Shown here: in pieces, positions 1 to 41,211 of the stretch | Position numbering within the stretch: position 1 is the stretch's first letter | Layout: every line of letters starts with the position of its first letter | Assembly (NCBI GenBank): GCA_039030515.1 | Contig: JBCCEA010000001.1 | Location: forward strand, 1-64,000 | From: Myxococcota bacterium | GTDB lineage: Bacteria; Myxococcota_A; Polyangia; Polyangiales; Houyiibacteriaceae | Length of the DNA: 64,000 bases | Reading direction: 5' to 3' | Program-made: the position numbers and the translations under genes | Notes under the pieces: model-generated | What the model was told of the DNA's origin: nothing | The model's database searches: none | Seen by the model: only the letters and a program-made list of their open reading frames with translations

Positions 1-430
1 GAAGACGACGGTGACGGGCGTCGAGATGTTCCGGAAGCTGCTGGACCAGGGTCAAGCGGGAGACAACGTGGGCTGTCTGCTTCGGGGAGTTGGGAAAGAA
101 GAAGTGGAGCGAGGCCAGGTGCTGGCGGCGCCCGGCTCGGTAAGCACGCACCAGAAGTTTGAAGCCGAAGTGTACGTTCTCAGTAAAGAAGAGGGCGGGA
201 GGCACAAGCCATTTTTCACAAACTATCGACCCCAGTTTTACATGCGCACGATGGACGTGACGGGAACCATCTCACTGCCGGAAGAGGTCAAGATGGTGAT
301 GCCCGGAGACAACGTGAAAATGACGGTAGAGCTGATCACGAAAGTTGCGATGGAAGAAAAGCAGCGCTTTGCGATTCGTGAAGGTGGACGCACGGTAGGT
401 GCCGGCGTTATCGCTAATATTTTGGAATAG
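1..430 (+). CDS. tuf: Elongation factor Tu, 3' part (5'-truncated by the window)
   Basis: [11 protein letters not shown]...[22 protein letters not shown] and [13 protein letters not shown] are EF-Tu domain II/III motifs; frame is open from the window start. Confidence 0.98.
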
Positions 431-25434: not shown

Positions 25435-26199
25435 TCAAGCTGCTTCCGTAGCGCCCTCAGTACGCGGCTGCCGTGATCTCTTATCGGCGTAGAGCGCGCG
25501 ATCCGCAGAGGCAGTGAGCGACGCTGCATCTGTCGGCTCTGCACCTGAGGAGGCTACGCCTACACTTGCTTTCAGGCGTCCAGACTCCAGAACCTGATCT
25601 TCGATGTGCCGGCGAATCCGCTCGGCGACGACCGCCGCCTCACCGGCATCGGTTTCTGGCAGCAGAAGCGCGAATTCATCTCCACCCAGTCTTGCCACAA
25701 GGTCGGTCGCTCTTAGTGCATCGAGGCAGGAGTGGGCGGTGGCGACGATCGCATCGTCTCCTGCCGCATGACCGAAATGATCGTTGATCGTTTTGAGCCC
25801 GTCTAAATCGACAAGGATAATAGAGAGTCCGGCACCCGTACGCTCGCTTCTCGCACATTCACGTTCCAGTGCGTCTCGAAATGCTCGGCGATTTGCAATG
25901 CCCGTGAGCTCGTCGCAGCCAGCCATTCGCTTCAGTCGAAACACCTCTCCAGCCCGCTCCGCGAGACTATCGATGATCGGGTTCCAGTGAAACGCCAGTT
26001 CACCCAGCGTTTTCCGAAGAGCGTTTGACGCATCTAGGGCTTCGTACGGGGTAGTGGCCGTAGCGAGCTCCTTGAGGTAGTTCAGGGCCTCTATCGCAGT
26101 TTCAGGCAGTGGCGGAAGTGCGCTTTCTCGCGTCAGGGCGGACTGACTAGCTATCACACGACCTCTCGTTTTTCGGCCTTCAACTTCGATGCATGCCAT
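25435..26199 (-). CDS. Diguanylate cyclase (GGDEF)
   Basis: DELTGIANRR, DLDGLKTINDHFGHAAGD, RATD I-site, RLGGDEF; start chosen downstream of a sigma54-like promoter. Confidence 0.9.
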   Translation of the reverse strand: MACIEVEGRKTRGRVIASQSALTRESALPPLPETAIEALNYLKELATATTPYEALDASNALRKTLGELAFHWNPIIDSLAERAGEVFRLKRMAGCDELTGIANRRAFRDALERECARSERTGAGLSIILVDLDGLKTINDHFGHAAGDDAIVATAHSCLDALRATDLVARLGGDEFALLLPETDAGEAAVVAERIRRHIEDQVLESGRLKASVGVASSGAEPTDAASLTASADRALYADKRSRQPRTEGATEAA

Positions 26200-26278
26200 G
26201 GACGGTTCCCCCAACTCCTCTAGGGGATTTCGGGCGTTGTTCACGGCATCTTGAGCGCGACGCATGCCGCAAGTCTGA

Positions 26279-26294
26279 AGCAAACCGTGTGCCG
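26279..26294 (-). promoter_or_regulatory. Putative sigma54 (-24/-12) promoter of the GGDEF gene
   Basis: Minus strand CGGCACACGGTTTGCT = GG-N10-GC with TTGC. Confidence 0.55.
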
Positions 26295-26430: not shown

Positions 26431-26497
26431 CCGAGGCAAGGAACGCCACGGCCTCTCGAGTCAGGGAAGACTCGAGTGAATCACCAGGGAAAGGTGA
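26431..26497 (+). promoter_or_regulatory. Three GGA-loop hairpins (putative CsrA binding sites) in the flagellin 1 leader
   Basis: GGC-AAGGAAC-GCC; CTCGAGTC-AGGGAA-GACTCGAG; TCACC-AGGGAAA-GGTGA, the last overlapping the RBS region. Confidence 0.65.
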
Positions 26498-26502
26498 AGA
26501 CC

Positions 26503-27351
26503 ATGGGAATTAGTATTGTCACCAATGTTCCGTCGCTCAATGCACAGAACCAACTCAACAACACACAAAACGCACTGAATCGGTCTTTGGGTCGATTGTC
26601 GAGCGGCCTCCGTATCAATAGGGCGTCCGACGATGCGGCGGGATTGGCTATCAGCGAAAAGTTGAAGTCACAAATCCGCAGCATGTCCCAGGCTGAAAGA
26701 AACGCAATGGATGCGATCAGTCTACTGCAAACCGCTGAAGGTGCGATGGGAGAGATTAGCGGAATTCTGACGAGGATGAGAGAGCTTTCGGTTCAGGCAG
26801 CCAACGATACCGTGGGCTCAACGGAACGGGGTTTTATCGATCAAGAGATATCGGCGCTAAGAGATGAACTCGACCGGTTGGCGGAAGTAAGCGACTTCAA
26901 CGGACGGGCGCTCATCGACGGCACTGGGACCGGATTTACCTTCCAGGTGGGAATCAACAACACCACCAACGATAGAATCTCGGTCTCTATAGCGGATATG
27001 CACGCTTCTCAGCTTGGCACAACCACGGTAACTGGAGGTGTGGGAGCGATCGATGTCACTTCGATTACGGGCGCACAAGCTGCGCTTGCCGTACTCGATG
27101 AGGCGATAAGCGACGTGTCCTCGGGTCGCGCGGATCTCGGAGCGATTCAAAATCGAATGGAAGTAACTATCGCGAATTTACAGACGTCACGTGAAAACCT
27201 TACAGAAGCAAACTCGAGAATCCGGGATACCGACGTAGCAGCGGAGACGGCGGCGCTTACAAGAGCCAATATTTTGGTGCAGGCAGGAACCAGTGTGTTG
27301 GCTCAGGCAAATCAGGCGCCGCAGATAGCTCTCAGTCTTCTGGGTGGGTAG
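26503..27351 (+). CDS. fliC: Flagellin 1 (282 aa, minimal D0/D1 type)
   Basis: RLSSGLRINRASDDAAGLAISE; RADLGAIQNR; SRIRDTDVA; AQANQAPQ. Confidence 0.97.
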   Translation: MGISIVTNVPSLNAQNQLNNTQNALNRSLGRLSSGLRINRASDDAAGLAISEKLKSQIRSMSQAERNAMDAISLLQTAEGAMGEISGILTRMRELSVQAANDTVGSTERGFIDQEISALRDELDRLAEVSDFNGRALIDGTGTGFTFQVGINNTTNDRISVSIADMHASQLGTTTVTGGVGAIDVTSITGAQAALAVLDEAISDVSSGRADLGAIQNRMEVTIANLQTSRENLTEANSRIRDTDVAAETAALTRANILVQAGTSVLAQANQAPQIALSLLGG

Positions 27352-28689: not shown

Positions 28690-28791
28690 ATTGGGTGTTT
28701 TGAAGCTGGATTGACGGAAAGACCAATGCGTGTGGAAGCACGCGATGCCGAATCGGGAAGGTTCGGAGGGTAGCTCACGGAGGAGACTTAA
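28690..28791 (+). promoter_or_regulatory. GGA-loop hairpins (putative CsrA sites) in the flagellin 2 leader
   Basis: GCGTG-TGGAAG-CACGC; CCGAA-TCGGGAAGG-TTCGG; CTC-ACGGAG-GAG at the RBS. Confidence 0.55.
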
Positions 28792-29637
28792 ATGGGTATT
28801 AGCGTAATTACGAACGTTCCGTCGATCAATGCGCAGCGGAACCTGAGTAAGACTCAGAATATGTTGAATAAGAGTCTCGGTCGGCTTTCGAGTGGATTGA
28901 GAATCAACAGTGCTTCGGACGACGCGGCAGGCCTGGGTATCAGCGAGAAGCTGAAATCTCAGATTCGAAGCATGGCTCAAGCCGAACGAAACGCTCAAGA
29001 TGCGGTCAGTCTGCTTCAGACCGCAGAAGGCGCAATGGGTGAATTGGCTGGAATTCTGACACGCATGCGCGAGCTAGCTGTTCAGTCGGCCAACGACACC
29101 GTGGGTTCTGTCGAGCGAGGGTTCATCAACGATGAGCTCTCTCAGCTTCGAACAGAATTTGATCGAATCGTGCAGGTTTCGGAGTTCAACGGTACCAAGC
29201 TTCTCGATGGCACCAATGGGCCTATGACGTTTCAGGTGGGTATTAACAACACTACCAATGACCGAATCACGGTAAATGTTGCAAACCTGACTACGTCTCA
29301 GGTCGGCGATACAAACTTCTCTTCGGGTCTGCAGGCGATCAATTTATCTACCCTCTCCGGTGCGCAAGCTTCATTGAACATCCTTGATGAGGCTATCAGT
29401 GATATCTCGAGTGAGAGAGCAACGATGGGTGCCTTCCAGAATCGAATGGAAGTTACTGTTTCGAATCTGGGTTCTGCTCGAGAAAACTTATCCGCTGCGA
29501 ACTCTCGTATTCGAGATGTCGATGTAGCGAGTGAGTCAGCAAATCTTACCAAGGCAAATATTTTGTCGCAGGCAGGTGTATCGGTTTTGGCTCAGGCCAA
29601 TCAGGCACCACAGCTCGCACTCAGTCTAATCGGTTAG
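28792..29637 (+). CDS. fliC: Flagellin 2 (281 aa)
   Basis: RLSSGLRINSASDDAAGL; SRIRDVDVA; AQANQAPQ. Confidence 0.97.
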   Translation: MGISVITNVPSINAQRNLSKTQNMLNKSLGRLSSGLRINSASDDAAGLGISEKLKSQIRSMAQAERNAQDAVSLLQTAEGAMGELAGILTRMRELAVQSANDTVGSVERGFINDELSQLRTEFDRIVQVSEFNGTKLLDGTNGPMTFQVGINNTTNDRITVNVANLTTSQVGDTNFSSGLQAINLSTLSGAQASLNILDEAISDISSERATMGAFQNRMEVTVSNLGSARENLSAANSRIRDVDVASESANLTKANILSQAGVSVLAQANQAPQLALSLIG

Positions 29638-29680: not shown

Positions 29681-29959
29681 CTCTAAGGAGATTTATCGTG
29701 TCTTTTAGAACTCGTACTTCATCGCTTCCGCGTGACGGACCGCGCGGGGCGAGTCGTGGGCCCTCGCGAGGGCCGCCTTTGAGTAGAGGGTCGCCATATG
29801 GCTATGCTCCTCGTTGGTGTGCTGTCGCGATTTACCGTGGCCCACCGCTCTTCCACGAAGGAGCGCTCAAGTCGTCCAAAAGCTTCGTCTACATACGTGT
29901 TCGGCGCATGTATGTGGGCAGGGATGAACTGAGACGAACACTCAAGGAAGAGGTGTACC

Positions 29960-30811
29960 ATGGCGATGACCGTAGTCACGAACGTGCCGTCAATGACAGC
30001 ACAGCGAAATCTCAACAAGACGAATAACTCTTTAAATAAGAGCTTACAGCGTCTGTCGAGTGGATTGCGAATAAACACCGCAGCGGATGATGCGGCGGGT
30101 CTGGGCATTAGTGAAAAGCTACAGTCTCAGATTCGCAGCATGGCCCAGGCGGAGCGAAACGCGGGTGACGCGGTCAGTCTGTTACAGACTGCCGAGAGCT
30201 CGCTAAGCGAAATGAGTGGAATTGTCACCCGCATGCGCGAATTGACGATTCAGGCAGCCAACGACACCGTCGGGTCGACAGAGCGGCAGTTTCTTGACGA
30301 CGAGCTCACGCAGCTCCGAGACGAGTTTGATCGCATCGCGTCGGTTACGGAGTTCAATGGCACCAAACTCATCGATGGTAGCGTTTCGGGTACCAACCAG
30401 CTCACGTTCCAGGTGGGTACCGGCGCGACCAGCAACGACCGAATCGAGGTCAGCATTGGAACGACAACAGCGGGTTCTGTAGGTACTACCGCTGCTACTT
30501 CGGGCTTGAATGCGGTCGGTCTTACGACCCTCACTGCAGCCCAAGGTTCGCTTGCTATCCTTGATGAGGCCATCAGCGATATCTCGACGCAGCGTGCGAC
30601 GTTGGGCGCGTCGCAAAATCGGATGGAGGTTACGATCTCCAATCTATCCTCTGCTCGAGAGAATCTCTCGGCGGCGAATTCTCGGATTCGCGATGTGGAT
30701 GTAGCCAGTGAGTCAGCCAATCTGACTCGAGCGAACATCCTGACCCAGGCAGGTGTCTCTGTTCTCGCTCAGGCGAATCAGACTCCTACCCTCGCGTTGT
30801 CACTCATCTAA
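29960..30811 (+). CDS. fliC: Flagellin 3 (283 aa)
   Basis: RLSSGLRINTAADDAAGL; SRIRDVDVA; AQANQTP. Confidence 0.97.
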   Translation: MAMTVVTNVPSMTAQRNLNKTNNSLNKSLQRLSSGLRINTAADDAAGLGISEKLQSQIRSMAQAERNAGDAVSLLQTAESSLSEMSGIVTRMRELTIQAANDTVGSTERQFLDDELTQLRDEFDRIASVTEFNGTKLIDGSVSGTNQLTFQVGTGATSNDRIEVSIGTTTAGSVGTTAATSGLNAVGLTTLTAAQGSLAILDEAISDISTQRATLGASQNRMEVTISNLSSARENLSAANSRIRDVDVASESANLTRANILTQAGVSVLAQANQTPTLALSLI

Positions 30812-34241: not shown

Positions 34242-35144
34242 TCATTCCCAATCTGCGACCTTTGCACGAATTTGCTTTTCGAGTGCAGCTCGCACGTCGT
34301 TTGAAATACCGAGGCCATGCCACGACTGGTGCACCTCTTCCTGAGGAGTGTAGTCCGCGTTGTCGAGGAGCGGGATTCCAAACCCCTCTCCTCGAACGAG
34401 GTCGTCGGCAATGGTGACGATCGCCGCCAGCGGGTTGATACGCCCATCCATGCGCGGGCAGTGGTGATGCTCGACGATCCACCGGATTTCATCGGAAAGT
34501 TCCCAGGCCTTGCAGACCGCACCGCCGGCGTGCTCATGGGCGCTGTCGATCGCCGATGCGAGTAGATCTGCGCTCAAGTCGTCCAGGTCTTTGAGTTTTG
34601 GACTGTCGACGATCGCTAAGGCGGCAGCCGTACCCATGTCGTGCAGCAGACCGCAGAGGAAGAGATGGTCTGATGGATATTGCGTCTGGTCGGAGAGAAA
34701 CTGACAGGCTCGGGCCACCTTGATGCTGTGGTCCTTGACGGAATTCATGACCTCTCCGTACCGCTTGCTTCGAAAGAGGGTAGATTCCATCGCCACGATC
34801 CAAACCAGGTTCTGGATCTCTTTGAGACCTAGCCGCATGCACGCATCTTTCAGGCTTCGCGGCGCTACCTTGGTTTTGTACATCGGAGAGGCAGCGCGAT
34901 GAAGCATGCTGGCTGCGATCATCGGATCGGTGGAAATCAGCTCGATGATCTCCTCCATCCCGACGTTGGGTCGCTTGATCAGTGCATTGACCTCCAGAGC
35001 GACCTTCGGCAGTAGGGGCGGACGGTAGTCTTCTCTACGAAAGAGCGCCAAAATCCGCTCGGTTGGATCGTCAAAGAGCGAGGCGTCGGCTTCGTTTACG
35101 CTGTGTATGCCCCGTCCATAGTTTGGGTTCATCCTCGCTTTCAA
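34242..35144 (-). CDS. HDOD domain protein
   Basis: PPLLPKVA, DPMIAASMLHRAASPMY, RLG, GLLHDMG, HEHAG, HHH; TTG start after AAAGGAGG. Confidence 0.88.
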   Translation of the reverse strand: MKARMNPNYGRGIHSVNEADASLFDDPTERILALFRREDYRPPLLPKVALEVNALIKRPNVGMEEIIELISTDPMIAASMLHRAASPMYKTKVAPRSLKDACMRLGLKEIQNLVWIVAMESTLFRSKRYGEVMNSVKDHSIKVARACQFLSDQTQYPSDHLFLCGLLHDMGTAAALAIVDSPKLKDLDDLSADLLASAIDSAHEHAGGAVCKAWELSDEIRWIVEHHHCPRMDGRINPLAAIVTIADDLVRGEGFGIPLLDNADYTPQEEVHQSWHGLGISNDVRAALEKQIRAKVADWE

Positions 35145-35248
35145 ATTACATTCCTCCTTTGAATGAAGGAGCCCAGGCGATCCGCATTTCTATGGGAAAC
35201 GGCGAGTTGATCGAGAACTAAAGCCGATGTCCTTTTTTTGCGCCTCCT

Positions 35249-36367
35249 TTAGCGAGACGCGAGCTTCAATGCTCGCACCAAATCGCTTGCGTTGTTGGCG
35301 ACGGCCTGTGCGGTTTGCGTCGCGATCACGCCGTCCCGCACCAGGCGGATCAACATCCGATCAAAAGAGTGAGAGCCTACCTCGCTGGAGCACGTGTCGA
35401 GTGCGGCAGCCAGGCCCCGGAGACGACTCCCGTCTCGAATGCACTCCATGATGGTTGGGGCTGGAACGAGGATTTCGGTGGCAAGCACCAGTTCGCTGCC
35501 CCCTCGTTTGGGGATGAGTCTTTGGGACACGATCGCGCTGAGGCAGTCTGCAAGTCGTTGACGGGTCGCGTCGCGCTGATCTTCCCCGTAGAAGTTGACG
35601 ATTCGTGAGATCGCTCGCGTGGCGTCCTTGCTGTGCATCGTCGACACGACGAGTCGGCCTGACTCTGCGGCGGTGATGGCGACGTTGATGTCTTGATGGT
35701 TTCGGAGCTCTCCGATGAAGATCACGTCCGGGTCTTCACGCAGGGCGCCTTCCAGTCCCTCTTCGAAAGAATCGACATCTCTGCCCACCTCGCGCTGCGA
35801 GAATCCCGAGTTGACATCTTTGAAGACAAACTCGATCGGGTCTTCGATGGTGACGATATGTTTCGAGGTCGTTTTGTTGATGTACTCGAGCATCGAAGCG
35901 ATCGTGGTTGACTTGCCGTTCCGAGTGGCTCCGGTGACCAGGATCAGACCTCGGTTCTGCATTGCGATGCGCTTCATCACCGGTGGAAGTCGCAGGCTCG
36001 TGAAGTCTGGAATCTCGCTTGGAATGTTTCTGGCGATGAGGCCGAGCGTCCCGTTTTGCTTGTAGAGATGGCAGCGAATGCGGGTCACGTTCGGTATCTG
36101 ACATGAAAAGTCGCACTGGTTGCGCTTGATGAGATCGAGAGAGATCCCTGCCCATCGCGCAAGCGCACTCGCTCCTCCGGTGATCGTGGCCTCGTCGAGC
36201 GGGGGGTGGTCGAGAGGACAGAGCTGACCTCGAATACGGACCATCGGGGTAGCGGCGGCCCGAAGGTGGATGTCGGAGGCTCCGGCGGCGAGCGCGCCCT
36301 TTAGAATTCTCAGTACCGTTTCCTGCGCTTTGTAGTTCTCACCCTCGCTCGGCGTGGCCGCCTTCAC
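35249..36367 (-). CDS. PilT/PilU-family secretion/retraction ATPase
   Basis: ASDIHL, Walker A GATRNGKST, Asp box TIEDPIE, QREVG, LREDPDVIFIGE, STMH. Confidence 0.88.
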   Translation of the reverse strand: MKAATPSEGENYKAQETVLRILKGALAAGASDIHLRAAATPMVRIRGQLCPLDHPPLDEATITGGASALARWAGISLDLIKRNQCDFSCQIPNVTRIRCHLYKQNGTLGLIARNIPSEIPDFTSLRLPPVMKRIAMQNRGLILVTGATRNGKSTTIASMLEYINKTTSKHIVTIEDPIEFVFKDVNSGFSQREVGRDVDSFEEGLEGALREDPDVIFIGELRNHQDINVAITAAESGRLVVSTMHSKDATRAISRIVNFYGEDQRDATRQRLADCLSAIVSQRLIPKRGGSELVLATEILVPAPTIMECIRDGSRLRGLAAALDTCSSEVGSHSFDRMLIRLVRDGVIATQTAQAVANNASDLVRALKLASR

Positions 36368-37827
36368 GACTTTGCCATTTCAACCCGATTGCGACCCGCG
36401 TTTTTGGCGGCGTAGAGCGCTCGGTCGGCGTTTTCGATCAGTTCCTCTGGGTTTTCTGCCGCAAGTCTCGAGTCACAGGTGACGCCGAGGCTCGCGGTAA
36501 CCCGCAGCGGTTCGCCATGATAGTCGACCACTTTGGCCTCGATGGCTTCCCGCATCTCTTCCGCAAGTCGGGCTGCCTCTTTGGCTTCGGTGTTCGGCAT
36601 GATGACGCAGAACTCTTCTCCGCCAAATCGGGCCGGAAAGTCGGACTTCCGCAGATGGTCCTTCAGCGCTGCGGCGACCGAGCTGAGCACGAGGTCGCCG
36701 GCCTGGTGCCCATGGGTATCGTTGAACGCCTTGAAGTGGTCTACGTCGATCATGGCGACTGCGAGGGGGAGGCCTCTCTTACGGCTGCGCTCGAACTCCC
36801 TTGTGATCGTTTCATCGAGGGCTCTTTTGTTCGGCAGTTTGGTCAGCGCATCGCTCAAGGCCATCGTCTTGAGTACTTGGTTGGCTCGCCTCAGTTCCGT
36901 CGCAAGCACTTCTTTTTCTTCGAGCAGGCGTTCAAGTCGGCGCACCGCACCTTCGTACTGTACGTTCAGCTGGAAGAGCTCTTCGGCGGCGTCCTTGATC
37001 AAGTCTTCGAGATTTGCCTGAGGCCTAAGGGTACGTTCAAAGTCTCGCGCGCATTCTTCAACTTTTATGGGTATCGAGTTAAGTAGTTCCTCGATTATTT
37101 GCTCATCAAGCGCAAGGTGAACCCCTGCTTCGATCGCTTGCGCTCGTAGTTTGTGGGTAGGGCCTCCTTCAAAAACGGCCGCAAGGCGTTCTGCCGCCCA
37201 GCTCAATCGCGCGAGCTTGTCCTCTGGAGGTTCGAGTTGGTGATGGCATTCGATAGCGAGGGCGGTCGCCTGAGGCATGCCGTATTCCCGGGCGAGGCGA
37301 GCGCCTTTTTCAGGGTGCGCCATCCATCCTTCGGCACGCTCTTGAGTAGGACGGTGCAGCGCCGGTGAAGCCGCAAGGGCTGCGGCACGACTCAAATCGG
37401 TTCGCGCATGAGAGAGCAGCCCGAGTTCCAGCAGGAGTCCCGTGGTGAATACCTCCGACTCGTCAGGATAATGCACGGCATGGGCAAGCTGCGCGATCGC
37501 TACCGCCCGACGAAGACAGCACGCCAAGAGCTGTCTTCCTTCTGGGGTATCGGGCGCCATATCGGTGACGGCGATGTTTAATGCGAGGTTGCGAATGCCG
37601 CGCACCCCGAGTACCGCACAAGCACGTCGAATGTCGGTCACCTTACTACGACGTAGGAGTAAGGGGCTGTTGACCAGGGACAGGACCCGGACGGTGAAGG
37701 CCGGATCGCTCTGTATCAGTCCTGCAACGTACGGCAGGGAGCAATCCGGCTGCATGGCCGCACTCACGATCTGCACCGCTAGGGCAGATATGGGTGAGCT
37801 AGTTTGTGAATCGGTATGCCCGGTCAT
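36364..37827 (-). CDS. HDOD-GGDEF diguanylate cyclase
   Basis: N-terminal HDOD (DPAFTVRVLSLVNSP), coiled coil, DALTKLPNKR, DVDHFK, RKSD I-site, RFGGEEF. Confidence 0.9.
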   Translation of the reverse strand: MTGHTDSQTSSPISALAVQIVSAAMQPDCSLPYVAGLIQSDPAFTVRVLSLVNSPLLLRRSKVTDIRRACAVLGVRGIRNLALNIAVTDMAPDTPEGRQLLACCLRRAVAIAQLAHAVHYPDESEVFTTGLLLELGLLSHARTDLSRAAALAASPALHRPTQERAEGWMAHPEKGARLAREYGMPQATALAIECHHQLEPPEDKLARLSWAAERLAAVFEGGPTHKLRAQAIEAGVHLALDEQIIEELLNSIPIKVEECARDFERTLRPQANLEDLIKDAAEELFQLNVQYEGAVRRLERLLEEKEVLATELRRANQVLKTMALSDALTKLPNKRALDETITREFERSRKRGLPLAVAMIDVDHFKAFNDTHGHQAGDLVLSSVAAALKDHLRKSDFPARFGGEEFCVIMPNTEAKEAARLAEEMREAIEAKVVDYHGEPLRVTASLGVTCDSRLAAENPEELIENADRALYAAKNAGRNRVEMAKS

Positions 37828-37913
37828 GAGGCGGCATCACTCCCACATCCCAGGTTTACGTCCATTTGGGGACAAACTGGACCCCTCGGCGTAGAGGGTC
37901 GTTCGTATTTTTT

Positions 37914-38528
37914 TCACGCGGCCGGCGAAGCGGGTTGGGCGACGAGTCCACCGAGTCCCTGAGCCACCAGGGTGTGTCGAACGCCGAGCTCTCGGCGATC
38001 GAGGATCACCTGCTTGCCCTCCCGCGAGTTGAGACCAAGCACGATAGGTGCCGCCAGGTTTACGGTGGCGGGGGCGTTTGGCGGCGCTGTAATCACCGCA
38101 GCTACCGCGACCTCCTCGTCGTCAAGTCCAGCGATTTGTTGGGCCTCTTCGATTGGGTAGCCCTCAAATACGAGTCTTGCTTCGATGACCAAGAGTTGAA
38201 TCTGCGGATCGACGCGTGATACGAGCGCGCGTACGTCGTGCCCCTCGTCGGTTTCGCAGAGCACAAAGCTCGTATGCTCTTGCATCCCGAGCAAACCTGC
38301 CGGAAAGGCGAGTGCATGCTCGTCTGCCTCGCGGATCTGGACTGCACCGGCCTGTGCGCGCTGATTCTCGCTTTGAATCTTATCCACGAGCTCTCCTCGA
38401 TACACCGAGAATTCCTTAGGGGCGTGCACCCCTATTCGTACTCTGCCGCGAGATACCGAAAGGACTGAAATCTGGATGAGTCCTCCGATTTCAATTCGCT
38501 CTCCTATTTTTCTTGTTAACGTCAGCAT
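37914..38528 (-). CDS. csrA-fliW: CsrA-FliW fusion protein (204 aa)
   Basis: N-terminal CsrA (MLTLTRKIGERIEIG...VRIGVHAP...VYRGE) continuous in frame with FliW (FPAGLLG...TVNLAAPIVL...GKQVIL...RH); RBS AAGGAG upstream of ATG 38528. Confidence 0.85.
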   Translation of the reverse strand: MLTLTRKIGERIEIGGLIQISVLSVSRGRVRIGVHAPKEFSVYRGELVDKIQSENQRAQAGAVQIREADEHALAFPAGLLGMQEHTSFVLCETDEGHDVRALVSRVDPQIQLLVIEARLVFEGYPIEEAQQIAGLDDEEVAVAAVITAPPNAPATVNLAAPIVLGLNSREGKQVILDRRELGVRHTLVAQGLGGLVAQPASPAA

Positions 38529-38542
38529 CCTTGCTCTCCTTT

Positions 38543-38892
38543 TGCAGCACGCCTCGCTGGGCCCGAACGCCCGCTTACCTCCGATGCTCGTCGCTCGAAG
38601 TACCGAATGTACGCCTTCGCGTCTGCGCTTCGTGGGCGCAGGGCGTTCGGGCCCATCGAGACGCGCTGCAGTACGCCTCGCCGGTCCGGAAAGGCCGCGA
38701 ACCTTTGATGTTCGTCGCTTGACGTACGGAATGAAGGCCTTCGCGTCTGCGCTTCGTGGGCGCAGGGCGTTCGGGCCCATCGAGACGCGCTGCAGTACGC
38801 CTCGCCGGTCCGGAAAGGCCGCGAACCTTTGATGTTCGTCGCTTGACGTACGGAGTGTACGCCTTCGCGCCTGCGCTTCGTGGGCGCAGGGC
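38543..38892. repeat. 124-bp tandem repeat (~2.8 copies) with ~30-bp terminal inverted repeats; REP/MITE-like
   Basis: Units start at 38543, 38667 and 38791; GCCTTCGCG recurs at 38613/38737/38861; unit ends are near reverse complements. Confidence 0.88.
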
Positions 38893-38931: not shown

Positions 38932-39816
38932 TCATCGCTGCGCCAAGCTTGGTGGCGGAAGTTCTCCTGCGATCTGAACGGCTGTGTTCAAAGCCGTTTG
39001 GGCTTGATTGAACGCGAAGTACGCATCGACATCCGATTCTCCGACCAGCTCGGTTTGCCGGATGGCCGCTTCATCTTCCACTCGATCTGCCACAGACTGT
39101 GCAACATCCAGGGCTGCAATCAGTGCACCGGTGGTTCCACGCGCATCGGAGACACGACCATGGGCGATGTCCAGACCGTCAAGCGTGCCTCGAATCGCCG
39201 GCACATCATCGGCGCGAAGCGCAGTGGACAGATTTTCCAAGACCGCGATCGGGTCGTCCGGTGCTCCCGGAGCGAACGCCGCTTGCGCATTGATCTTCAT
39301 CGGCATGCGTACGCCTGGCGCCACTTCCACTTCGCGAACATTTTGATCGCTGACGAATGTGCCCGATGCATCAAAAGGTGGTGCGTCCTCTAGGTAGCCC
39401 GCAAAGAGATAGGCCCCTCCCTGACCCTGGGTGTTCGCCAGAGAGATAAGCTGCTGCCTCAATTCCTCAACCTCCGATGCGGCGTTGAGCCGGTCTCCGG
39501 CATTGAGGGTATCGTTGGCGGTTTGGGTCGCGAGCTCGCGGGCTCGGTTCAGAATGTCGGTGACATTGGAAAGCGTATCGTCAGTGAGCTGCAGGTTTGC
39601 GATAGCGCGCTCGGCCGACTCCTTATGCATGGCGGCACGGGCCTCTCGGCTTCGCTCACGGCGGGCGGCCGCAAAATCCGCCGGATCGTCCGAAGGGTCC
39701 TGAACCCGGCGTCCGGTGGTCAACGTTTCCTGAGCCTGAGCTACTTCTTCACGGGATTTGGCGATGTTGATCCGGTTCAGTTCATAGAGCATGGAATCCG
39801 TAACGCGCATCACCAT
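38932..39816 (-). CDS. flgL: Flagellar hook-associated protein 3 FlgL
   Basis: MRVTD, TGRRVQDPSDDPA, YLFAG...PPF; follows flgK. Confidence 0.9.
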   Translation of the reverse strand: MVMRVTDSMLYELNRINIAKSREEVAQAQETLTTGRRVQDPSDDPADFAAARRERSREARAAMHKESAERAIANLQLTDDTLSNVTDILNRARELATQTANDTLNAGDRLNAASEVEELRQQLISLANTQGQGGAYLFAGYLEDAPPFDASGTFVSDQNVREVEVAPGVRMPMKINAQAAFAPGAPDDPIAVLENLSTALRADDVPAIRGTLDGLDIAHGRVSDARGTTGALIAALDVAQSVADRVEDEAAIRQTELVGESDVDAYFAFNQAQTALNTAVQIAGELPPPSLAQR

Positions 39817-39819
39817 CTC

Positions 39820-41211
39820 CTATCGCTTGAGGTTGATCAGCTCGGCGAGCATTTCATCCGCGGTTTGAATCACCTGGAGGCTGGTCTGGTAGCTGCGCTG
39901 AAACTGCATGAGGTTGACCATCTCCTCGTCGGTACTCGCTCCGGAAACGGACTCTCGCAGGGTGGAGACCTGTTCAAGTGCAGATTCGGAGGCTTCTTCC
40001 CGAAAAAGTGCATCCGATACGGTCACGCCGGCGTCGCCGATGAGCTCTCGAAGCGCTTCTCCGGCGGTCGCGGTGCTGCCAAGAGCGATCGAGCTTGTGG
40101 CAAGCGCTTGAAGATCGAGGGCGTTGCGGTTGTCCCCCGGTAAGAGCGTGGGGTCTGTGGCTGCCGCGAGCGCTTCAGGCACGCCATCTACGGCTGAAGA
40201 AATTTGCACTTGAGAAGCAGCGCCGCTTGCGGTGCCGATCGTTTCAAATAGATTCCGGCCGGTGATTCCATCCAGTCCATATCCGGCGCTGTGGGTGCCG
40301 TTGTAGGCGGTGGTAAAGTCGAACGCGAGCTGATCGAGCGCGTTTTGTGCGGAGGTCAAACCTCCGTCGCGTGCATCGATCCACCCGCTAAGCTGTCCGC
40401 TCGTAAGACTGGAGGCCACATTCTCTTGGACGCCAGCACTGATGCGGAACACGTCGACGTTGGAAGTCGCGGGATTTCGCTGCGTCGAGAGCGGATGCAC
40501 GGATCCATCGGCAGTGACCAAGGACTGGCCTCCTCCGAGAAGCAGTTGAATGGGGCCATCTTCCTGCTCGAGTACGGTGACCGGGACGACATCGGCTACT
40601 TCACGTACGAGCTGGTCTCGTCGATCTCTGAGGTCGCTTGCCTCAAGCTCAGAAAGCTCCGTTTTTGCAATTTCTTGCCCTAGTCGTGCGATTTCTTCAA
40701 GTTTTCCATTTAGGTCTGCAACTTCGTCTTCTATACGCCCGTTGATGTCCTCGCGTCGCTGGGTCAAGAAATCTGAAGTGGCTCGGAACGAATATGCGAG
40801 CTGTTCGGCAAGGGTGAGTACCGAGTTGCGGCGCGTAAGGTCCGATGGATCCGAGCTGAGATCGGCGATCGCGTTTTCAAACGCGTCGAGTGCATCCGCC
40901 AAGTTTCCAGCCTCATCGCCGAACGCCTCGTCGAGGGGTCTTAGCGCCTCTGCGCGCGCGGACGATTCACCCATCATCGAGCGGGCGCCGAGCAAACGAC
41001 GTTCGATGTACGGATCGATGACCCGTTTTTGTCCGACCGCGCGAGAGCCGAGTCCAGGAGATTGCGCGGCGATGGGATCGATGTGTGCCAGCCTCCGGCT
41101 GTATCCCTCCGTGCCGACGTTGGAGGCATTTTGTGAGGAGACCTGCGTTCCGAAGGCATGGCTGCGCATACCGTTGGCTCCCAGATTTAAGATGCCGAAT
41201 ACGGTCGTCAT
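39820..41211 (-). CDS. flgK: Flagellar hook-associated protein 1 FlgK
   Basis: NASNVGTEGYSRR, DLRDRRDQL, GDNRNAL, SVSGASTDEEMVNLMQFQRSY. Confidence 0.93.
   Translation of the reverse strand: MTTVFGILNLGANGMRSHAFGTQVSSQNASNVGTEGYSRRLAHIDPIAAQSPGLGSRAVGQKRVIDPYIERRLLGARSMMGESSARAEALRPLDEAFGDEAGNLADALDAFENAIADLSSDPSDLTRRNSVLTLAEQLAYSFRATSDFLTQRREDINGRIEDEVADLNGKLEEIARLGQEIAKTELSELEASDLRDRRDQLVREVADVVPVTVLEQEDGPIQLLLGGGQSLVTADGSVHPLSTQRNPATSNVDVFRISAGVQENVASSLTSGQLSGWIDARDGGLTSAQNALDQLAFDFTTAYNGTHSAGYGLDGITGRNLFETIGTASGAASQVQISSAVDGVPEALAAATDPTLLPGDNRNALDLQALATSSIALGSTATAGEALRELIGDAGVTVSDALFREEASESALEQVSTLRESVSGASTDEEMVNLMQFQRSYQTSLQVIQTADEMLAELINLKR

Follow-up and report, generated by a model that had tools for sequence, protein, structure and literature searches.

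In textbooks, the flagellin-FliW-CsrA circuit exemplifies both the control of CsrA by a protein antagonist and the homeostasis of a structural protein. In Bacillus subtilis, the partner switch made of the flagellin Hag, FliW and CsrA is said to have been described by Mukherjee in 2011 and 2016. One FliW antagonises a CsrA dimer in this organism, at about 1:1:1 for Hag, FliW and the CsrA dimer, and this stoichiometry is held partly through translational coupling (PMC6529632). Flagellin protects residues 3-11, 22-28 and 95-115 of B. subtilis FliW (PMC6070490). Regions 22-28 and 95-115 include P26, N108 and A111, which lie close to N55 of CsrA in the complex, and this supports the view that flagellin and CsrA would compete for one FliW surface. 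N55 of B. subtilis CsrA is essential for FliW binding, and P26, F58, N108, A111 and Q124 of FliW are needed for binding to CsrA (bioRxiv 10.1101/2020.07.02.184341). A salt bridge between K123 of FliW and D41 of CsrA is needed for inhibition in Bacillus and is labelled Bacillales-specific (bioRxiv 10.1101/2020.07.02.184341). The published model needs a free FliW that switches partners, at a tuned level of about one FliW per CsrA dimer.

Here, we describe a locus in an uncultured, flagellated marine myxobacterium (a Polyangia metagenome-assembled genome, MAG) in which CsrA and FliW are joined in one polypeptide. It resembles the B. subtilis switch in that the same two families are involved, the contact residue N55 and the equivalent of Q124 are conserved, the flagellin leaders show two candidate GGA sites, one of them over the Shine-Dalgarno (SD) sequence, and there is genomic linkage to late flagellar genes. 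It differs in that fliW and csrA of B. subtilis are separate, translationally coupled genes in the order fliW then csrA, whereas a single chain in the order CsrA-FliW is found here; in that FliW and the CsrA dimer would be present at a fixed 2:1 rather than about 1:1; and in that the N-terminal segment of FliW is replaced by a tether and the K123-D41 pair is not conserved. Both parts of the protein also align with the FliW-CsrA complex of Geobacillus thermodenitrificans (PDB 5DMB; chains 5dmb_A and 5dmb_D). The chains of 5DMB, however, are separate and held non-covalently, and the fused protein is without most of the CsrA C-terminal tail and about the first 5-9 residues of FliW. A lineage that carries the covalent join across several families, with no free copy, tests which features of the published model are essential.

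Results

A single reading frame encodes CsrA and FliW

The window (the whole stretch of DNA that was analysed, 64,000 nucleotides) carries on its minus strand, at 37914..38528, a csrA::fliW fused coding sequence of 204 codons plus a stop, defined by ORF translation and Pfam and free of stops across its entire length from 38528 to 37914. The CsrA domain, residues 1-52 (38373..38528, minus), matches PF02599 with 70.8 bits, against a cut-off of 27, over profile positions 1-52 of 53. The FliW domain, residues 74-187 (37968..38309, minus), matches PF02623 with 74.1 bits, against a cut-off of 25, over positions 2-122 of 122, and is followed by a non-conserved tail of 17 residues. A first-pass annotation, made from the letters alone, had read at this place a 204-residue chain of CsrA and FliW located downstream of flgK-flgL, and had proposed to compare its C-terminal part with the FliW family, to search for both domains on one chain and map their taxonomic spread, and to inspect the junction. 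Pfam bears out the single chain, with both domains complete and the C-terminal part assigned to PF02623, and same-strand annotation agrees with the position behind flgK-flgL.

We place the start codon at 38528, and not at 38780, because the residue aligned with M1 is the start in 22/22 aligned homologues (with the consensus 'ML(T/N)L(T/S)R') and because of the position of an SD-like AAGGAGA (38535..38541, minus), 6 nt upstream of this ATG. The 288-aa ORF starting at 38780 was set aside as a spurious extension, which crosses an intergenic repeat (see below). An internal start giving a separate FliW product was also dropped: the first internal Met, M82, lies within the FliW domain, the tether of the fused gene contains no in-frame ATG, and no conserved Met was seen in the tether across the 22 aligned homologues. 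No sigma-70-like promoter was found between 37600 and 39100, and the single terminator-like site in that interval is unremarkable against a mean of 1.7 in shuffled sequences. No other match to CsrA or FliW was found in the genome (4.08 Mb, 75 contigs, 85% complete), of which the fused gene is the sole CsrA and the sole FliW found.

The fused gene closes a flagellar block

A flagellar block on the minus strand ends with the fused gene; it also holds flgA, flgH, flgI, a gene for a rod-binding protein, flgK (39820..41211, minus) and flgL, which codes for the hook-filament junction protein (38932..39816, minus) and lies between flgK and the fused gene. Three flagellin genes, fliD and fliS are found on the plus strand at 26.5-32.8 kb. 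Taken as a whole, the region from 26.5 to 47 kb has a full flagellar set (flagellins, fliD, fliS, flgK, flgL, flgI, flgH and flgA). Flagella are unexpected from the standpoint of the classical gliding myxobacteria. In the five relatives checked, flgL is directly upstream of the fused gene and abuts it. In the window the gap between the two is 403 nt and is filled by a 124-bp tandem repeat (38543..38892; 2.8 copies, 91% matches), which is no part of the switch, but separates the fused gene from flgL.

Downstream of the fused gene are HDOD-GGDEF, PilT-like ATPase and HDOD genes. Genes of the c-di-GMP type (HDOD-GGDEF, HDOD-HD and GGDEF) and for a PilT/T2SSE-like ATPase occupy 34242-37827 and 25435-26283, both on the minus strand; these signalling and ATPase genes keep the fused gene apart from the flagellin operon.

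Distribution of the fusion and co-occurrence with flagellin

Both Pfam domains were present in 22/22 database homologues (40-100% identity, 190-237 aa). A profile of 22 sequences, run against 1.84 billion representatives, gave 36 hits at E<=1e-30, and 46 of its best 150 hits matched over both domains in a single stretch. A scan of contig databases confirmed 36 distinct loci, 18 with a fused ORF, 2 with split genes and the rest with the CsrA part only; the MAGs bearing the 18 fused loci are titled Polyangia, Polyangiales, Polyangiaceae, Sandaracinaceae, Myxococcota or 'Deltaproteobacteria'. We also sampled 400 genomes of the phylum; apart from the window's own genome, 132 of them had a match. 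In this sample, only families of the window's own order (f1, f4, f6, f14 and f18) showed full-length single matches, with one match to the protein in each fused-bearing genome listed; family f11 has a full-length single match as well, in a set of 40 related genomes.

Among the 40 relatives, 10 have an uninterrupted full-length match and 13 have flagellin genes. The fusion is present in 10 of these 13 and absent from all 27 relatives in which flagellin had no match, all fusion-bearing relatives (10/10) having flagellin genes; since related genomes are not independent, this co-occurrence is descriptive. The link of the fused gene to flagella is thus seen both in its place behind flgK-flgL and in the co-occurrence with flagellin among the relatives. 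In the three other flagellin-bearing relatives (G026, G036 and G039, of the same order), neither half of the protein found a match at E<=1e-3; either the genes are missing from the assemblies, or flagellin may be regulated there in the absence of CsrA and FliW.

Split csrA-fliW pairs and the origin of the fusion

In family f17, of the same order, and in the rest of the class and other classes, two separate matches were found, commonly adjacent and with csrA preceding fliW. In the loci compared, the frames of the two genes either abut or overlap; in locus L076, for example, fliW starts at 1923, before the end of csrA at 1926, and the pair in L078 shows a 4-nt overlap. We infer that an ancestral pair, csrA followed by fliW and often overlapping, gave rise to the fusion. 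The domain order CsrA-FliW is that of the ancestral genes, because other Myxococcota have split csrA followed by fliW. The first-pass annotation had pointed out that the order is the reverse of that in B. subtilis; this is true, but calls for no special explanation, csrA-fliW being normal in the phylum.

A tree was built from the concatenated CsrA and FliW parts of 46 distinct fused sequences and of 12 split pairs, a selection from dozens of two-match genomes together with the 2 split loci of the contig scan. The 46 short-linker fusions form one clade within Polyangia, for which a single change suffices, with an SH-aLRT of 99 that may be flattered, as junction columns filled in less than half of the rows were dropped while columns adjacent to the trait were kept. 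The stem of the fused clade is long (0.69-0.76). The split family f17 and the fused clade stand in an open polytomy.

Because the frames of csrA and fliW overlap in split relatives, a one-base error at such a place would make a fusion, and a frameshift or assembly error that merged two genes has to be weighed. Sequencing support came from Logan contigs of four marine-metagenome runs, which belong to one study and possibly include the source sample. In all four runs, contigs span the junction at 38330-38350, where the first-pass annotation had suggested looking, without an indel: X1 (37700-38588) has 0 differences to the fused locus, and X3 (37700-38590), X2 (38106-38588) and X4 (38279-38536) also cross the junction. 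The only indel in these contigs, at 37908 in X3, is outside the fused coding sequence, and the 6 SNPs within it in X2-X4 comprise 4 synonymous changes, V142I and Q83P. Moreover, the fused architecture recurs in 22/22 homologues and across many assemblies, which together gave 46 distinct sequences, and no second CsrA or FliW was found in the genome. An artefact or pseudogene is therefore very improbable indeed, and the fusion is confirmed as real.

RNA-binding and contact residues

In the CsrA part of the 46 distinct fused sequences, L2 (46/46), L4 (45/46), R6 (46/46), R44 (46/46) and E46 (46/46) are conserved. We take these five positions to be the RNA-binding residues, as in work on E. coli CsrA. 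N55 is present in 43/46 and replaced by I, T or Q in the other 3. For the FliW part, residue equivalents were mapped through the alignment to 5dmb_A. N157 (N108 of the Bacillus protein), A160 (A111), G171 (G122) and Q173 (Q124) are each found in 46/46, and L112, the equivalent of F58, is always hydrophobic (L, F or I). The equivalent of P26 is a Pro in just 8/46, and otherwise F, Y, L or I. The K123-D41 pair is not conserved, position 172 being V, R, K, E or S and position 41 P, A, S or T.

A tether replaces the N-terminal segment of FliW

The junction or tether (residues 59-72; 38313..38354, minus) is variable in sequence and has a pLDDT of 66 in the block 61-70; measured from A58 to residue 73, it spans 13-31 aa across the 46 fused sequences, with a mode of 14. 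The split FliW proteins of the phylum start with 'xIxTxRFGxIEV...IxFPxGLxGF' and carry 'WLQS', whereas in the fused clade 'TxRFG' is absent, with the variable tether in its place, and 'ALVS' is found for 'WLQS'. By sequence alignment to the Geobacillus proteins, residues 2-61 correspond to CsrA 3-62 and residues 61-189 to FliW 10-140.

An AlphaFold2 (AF2) model of the monomer has a mean pLDDT of 88.1 and a pTM of 0.80, the latter a hint of a fixed arrangement of the two domains, and shows a helix at 45-57 that contains N55. The FliW fold is supported, with a Z of 15.2 to both 5dmb_A and 5dmd_B; against 5dmb_A (VIA), the rmsd is 2.7 over 130 residues (model 61..203, chain 6..142). The CsrA part of the model compares with CsrA chains at a TMt of 0.70-0.79, with 0.70 for 5dmb_D. 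Because model residue 61 aligns with FliW residue 6, the tether is modelled at the site usually taken by the N-terminal strand of FliW.

Candidate CsrA sites in the flagellin leaders

Paired GGA sites are found in the leaders of all three flagellin genes in the window (3/3), and recur in relatives. In the leader of flagellin 1 (candidate sites at 26455..26496, plus, by folding; ATG at 26503), the minimum free energy (MFE) fold predicts a hairpin, CUCGAGUC[AGGGAA]GACUCGAG, at 26455-26476, followed at 26482-26496 by CACC[AGGGAAA]GGUG, which covers the ribosome-binding region. That of flagellin 2 (28748..28785, plus, by folding; ATG at 28792) has a predicted hairpin, CCGAAUC[GGGAA]GGUUCGG, at 28748-28766, and its SD is covered by CUCACGGAGGAG at 28774-28785. 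In that of flagellin 3 (29920..29952, plus, by folding; ATG at 29960), AGGGAUGA at 29920-29927 is outside the predicted loops, and CUCAAGGAAGAG at 29941-29952 lies over the SD.

We examined 16 leaders: 4 belong to the window's own genome, and 5 relatives that bear the fusion supplied the other 12, two of which are identical. A GGA was present in the SD region of 16/16, and an upstream GGA was placed in a hairpin loop in about 12/16, as judged by eye from MFE folds; 'UC(A/G)GGA(U/A)GA' and 'CUCA(A/C)GGA(G/A)GAG' are recurring forms. GGA at an SD is common. A genome-wide control for hairpins with GGA in the loop before start codons was non-specific, with 1615 hits, and a 12-mer derived from the leaders, CTCA[AC]GGA[AG]GAG, had 12 hits in the genome, 2 of them before flagellins. 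The leader evidence falls short of proof because these controls are non-specific. The hag leader of B. subtilis has a two-site layout for CsrA (PMC6070490); judged by their sequence, the paired-GGA leaders are consistent with this layout as candidate sites, which is not proof.

Discussion

A proposed single-chain form of the switch

On balance, we lean towards the reading that the product of the fused gene is the flagellin-FliW-CsrA partner switch in single-chain form, as the first-pass annotation had suggested with its one-component flagellin sensor; we hold this to be somewhat probable. It fits the conserved contact pair, the RNA-binding residues, the paired GGA leaders and the co-occurrence with flagellin. 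The completeness of both domains, the lack of a second copy, the inheritance of the fusion as one clade, the fit of the AF2 model to 5DMB and CsrA chains, and the 4/6 synonymous SNPs also speak for it. In such a switch, the CsrA domains would dimerise, bringing two FliW domains to each CsrA dimer, and each FliW domain would dock on the helix with N55, as in PDB 5DMB. Docked FliW would block the RNA-binding faces, leaving the flagellin mRNA to be translated. When unexported flagellin accumulates, it would bind a surface of FliW that overlaps the contact with N55, and FliW would undock; the freed CsrA dimer could then clamp the two GGA sites, in the hairpin loop and in the SD region, and block translation. 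Presumably, release of the dimer would require flagellin on both FliW domains. The antagonist being tethered, the set point would therefore lie in the balance between intramolecular docking and affinity for flagellin, and not in the relative amounts of two proteins.

Two features speak against a switch of the Bacillus type in the strict sense. The fusion would force a 2:1 ratio of FliW to the CsrA dimer, and the separate, diffusible FliW of a partner switch is not found, both domains being on one chain that has no second copy. Moreover, the segment of the flagellin footprint made of FliW residues 3-11 is replaced by the tether, so that flagellin binding may be altered and a simple transfer of the Bacillus model is weakened. 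The replacement of N55 in 3/46, the unconserved K123-D41 pair, the commonness of GGA at an SD and the three flagellin-bearing relatives with no match also count against the single-chain switch. The footprint includes both the N-terminus of FliW and the residues next to N55, and for this reason the chain ends that are joined here are probably neighbours in the complex; a short tether would then be compatible with docking within the chain.

The single-chain switch has to be weighed against readings in which the tether has a different meaning. The fusion could be neutral, of the 'Rosetta stone' kind, with the function of the split type: the short tether would keep FliW from docking inside its own dimer, inhibition would pass from the FliW of one dimer to the CsrA of a second to give chains or higher oligomers, and the fusion would fix co-expression only. 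With the frames overlapping in split relatives, and csrA and fliW translationally coupled in B. subtilis (PMC6529632), a fusion would be a small step, and the predicted structure, in which residue 61 aligns with FliW residue 6 and the helix ends at 57, would leave almost no free linker. The long stem of the clade and the remodelled FliW motifs suggest instead that adaptation followed the fusion, and the joined ends, as argued above from the footprint, are probably neighbours in the canonical complex; we regard such action in trans as unlikely. A change of logic, in which the FliW domain is no inhibitor of CsrA and would serve to tether flagellin to CsrA-bound flagellin mRNA, and through flagellin also FliS and the export gate, so that translation is coupled or localised to secretion, appears to us less likely still. 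Such a change would accommodate the loss of the N-terminal segment of the footprint, the unconserved salt-bridge pair of Bacillus and the absence of N55 in 3/46, and the CsrA-FliW network of Campylobacter jejuni is reported to affect the localisation of flaA mRNA (PMC4894983). Against it, Q173, N157 and A160 show no variation and N55 persists in 43/46, as expected under selection on the CsrA-FliW contact, with the caveat that these three FliW residues may also serve flagellin binding.

Returning to the single-chain switch, a more specific form of it can be envisaged, in which the switch has been re-engineered and the tether stands in place of the flagellin-contacted strand of FliW, so that the hinge that joins antagonist to repressor would itself be the point at which flagellin acts. 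We consider this form possible, if doubtful. If true, the flagellin threshold would be independent of protein concentration and cooperative, with two flagellins per dimer, and flagellin, sensor, repressor and mRNA would all be in one complex. Overall, the Polyangia fusion is a real, conserved and uncharacterised variant of a known system, with a plausible mechanism. It also offers biochemistry and synthetic biology a ready-made single-chain sensor-repressor.

Other covalent arrangements of CsrA and FliW

A Pfam run on 35 selected hits of the profile search revealed further fusions. P0047, P0064, P0068, P0073, P0083, P0089 and P0120 are CsrA-FliW proteins with a long linker, of about 55-65 aa, which differ from the Polyangia fusion in that they have a complete FliW N-terminus and the 'LQ(S/C)' motif. 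P0047 even has the initiator Met of FliW, and looks like a recent read-through fusion. Their clusters have up to 11 members, from different sources and of identical length (in one case 11, all of 253 aa), and one cluster member is named Desulfobaccales bacterium. In the tree, the long-linker fusions fall outside the Polyangia clade, with at least four state changes on a topology with weak deep nodes and four long-branch rows; because they lie outside this clade, they look like independent read-through fusions. The reverse order, FliW-CsrA, was found in P0075, P0171 and the fragment P0154, and P0052 is a CsrAx2-FliW protein; FliW-FliW proteins and proteins with two or four CsrA domains were also present. 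That fusions have arisen independently, and with the domains in either order, suggests that tethering is a viable solution which recurs. P0045, P0046, P0051 and P0053 are, with P0052, P0075 and P0171, among the other covalent arrangements of CsrA and FliW modules. We also noted odd fusions of CsrA to ribosomal protein S17 (P0157), to an IF2_N motif (P0149) and to zf-HC2 (P0145).

The first-pass annotation knew of no characterised CsrA-FliW fusion, and we likewise found no description of a natural one, of any type, in the searchable full-text literature; going by their titles, the papers listed for CsrA, FliW and fusion seemed to deal with reporter or tag constructs. A full-text literature search returned no paper on FliW in Myxococcota, and the accessible part of a 2026 NAR survey of CsrA variation mentions no CsrA-FliW fusion. 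The architecture is hidden from annotation-based surveys because the sources name the proteins only 'carbon storage regulator' or 'FliW'; the combination of CsrA and FliW is probably listed in domain-architecture databases.

Repeats near the fused gene and the fourth flagellin gene

The 124-bp repeat that separates flgL from the fused gene has the look of a dispersed REP-like element. A 15-base core of the repeat recurs in the genome, with 12 occurrences spread over 7 contigs, and contig depth over the repeat rises to about 1100, as compared to about 22 in the flanks; in one run there is a form from which 186 bases (38608 to 38795) are missing. Copies of a related repeat ('...GCGCTTCGTGGGCGC...') are located upstream of the fourth flagellin gene of the genome, on contig C45 (locus L006, G000:C45, at about 2000-2367 on the minus-strand ruler). 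A sigma-28-like motif, TAAAGTTT-N11-CCGATAC, is also present upstream of this flagellin gene, in the same interval; the three flagellin genes of the window had no equally clear sigma-28-like match. Downstream of the C45 flagellin locus, at about 290-430 of L006, are about 9 tandem copies of an 18-nt unit (CAAGGCCAAGACAAACTT-like).
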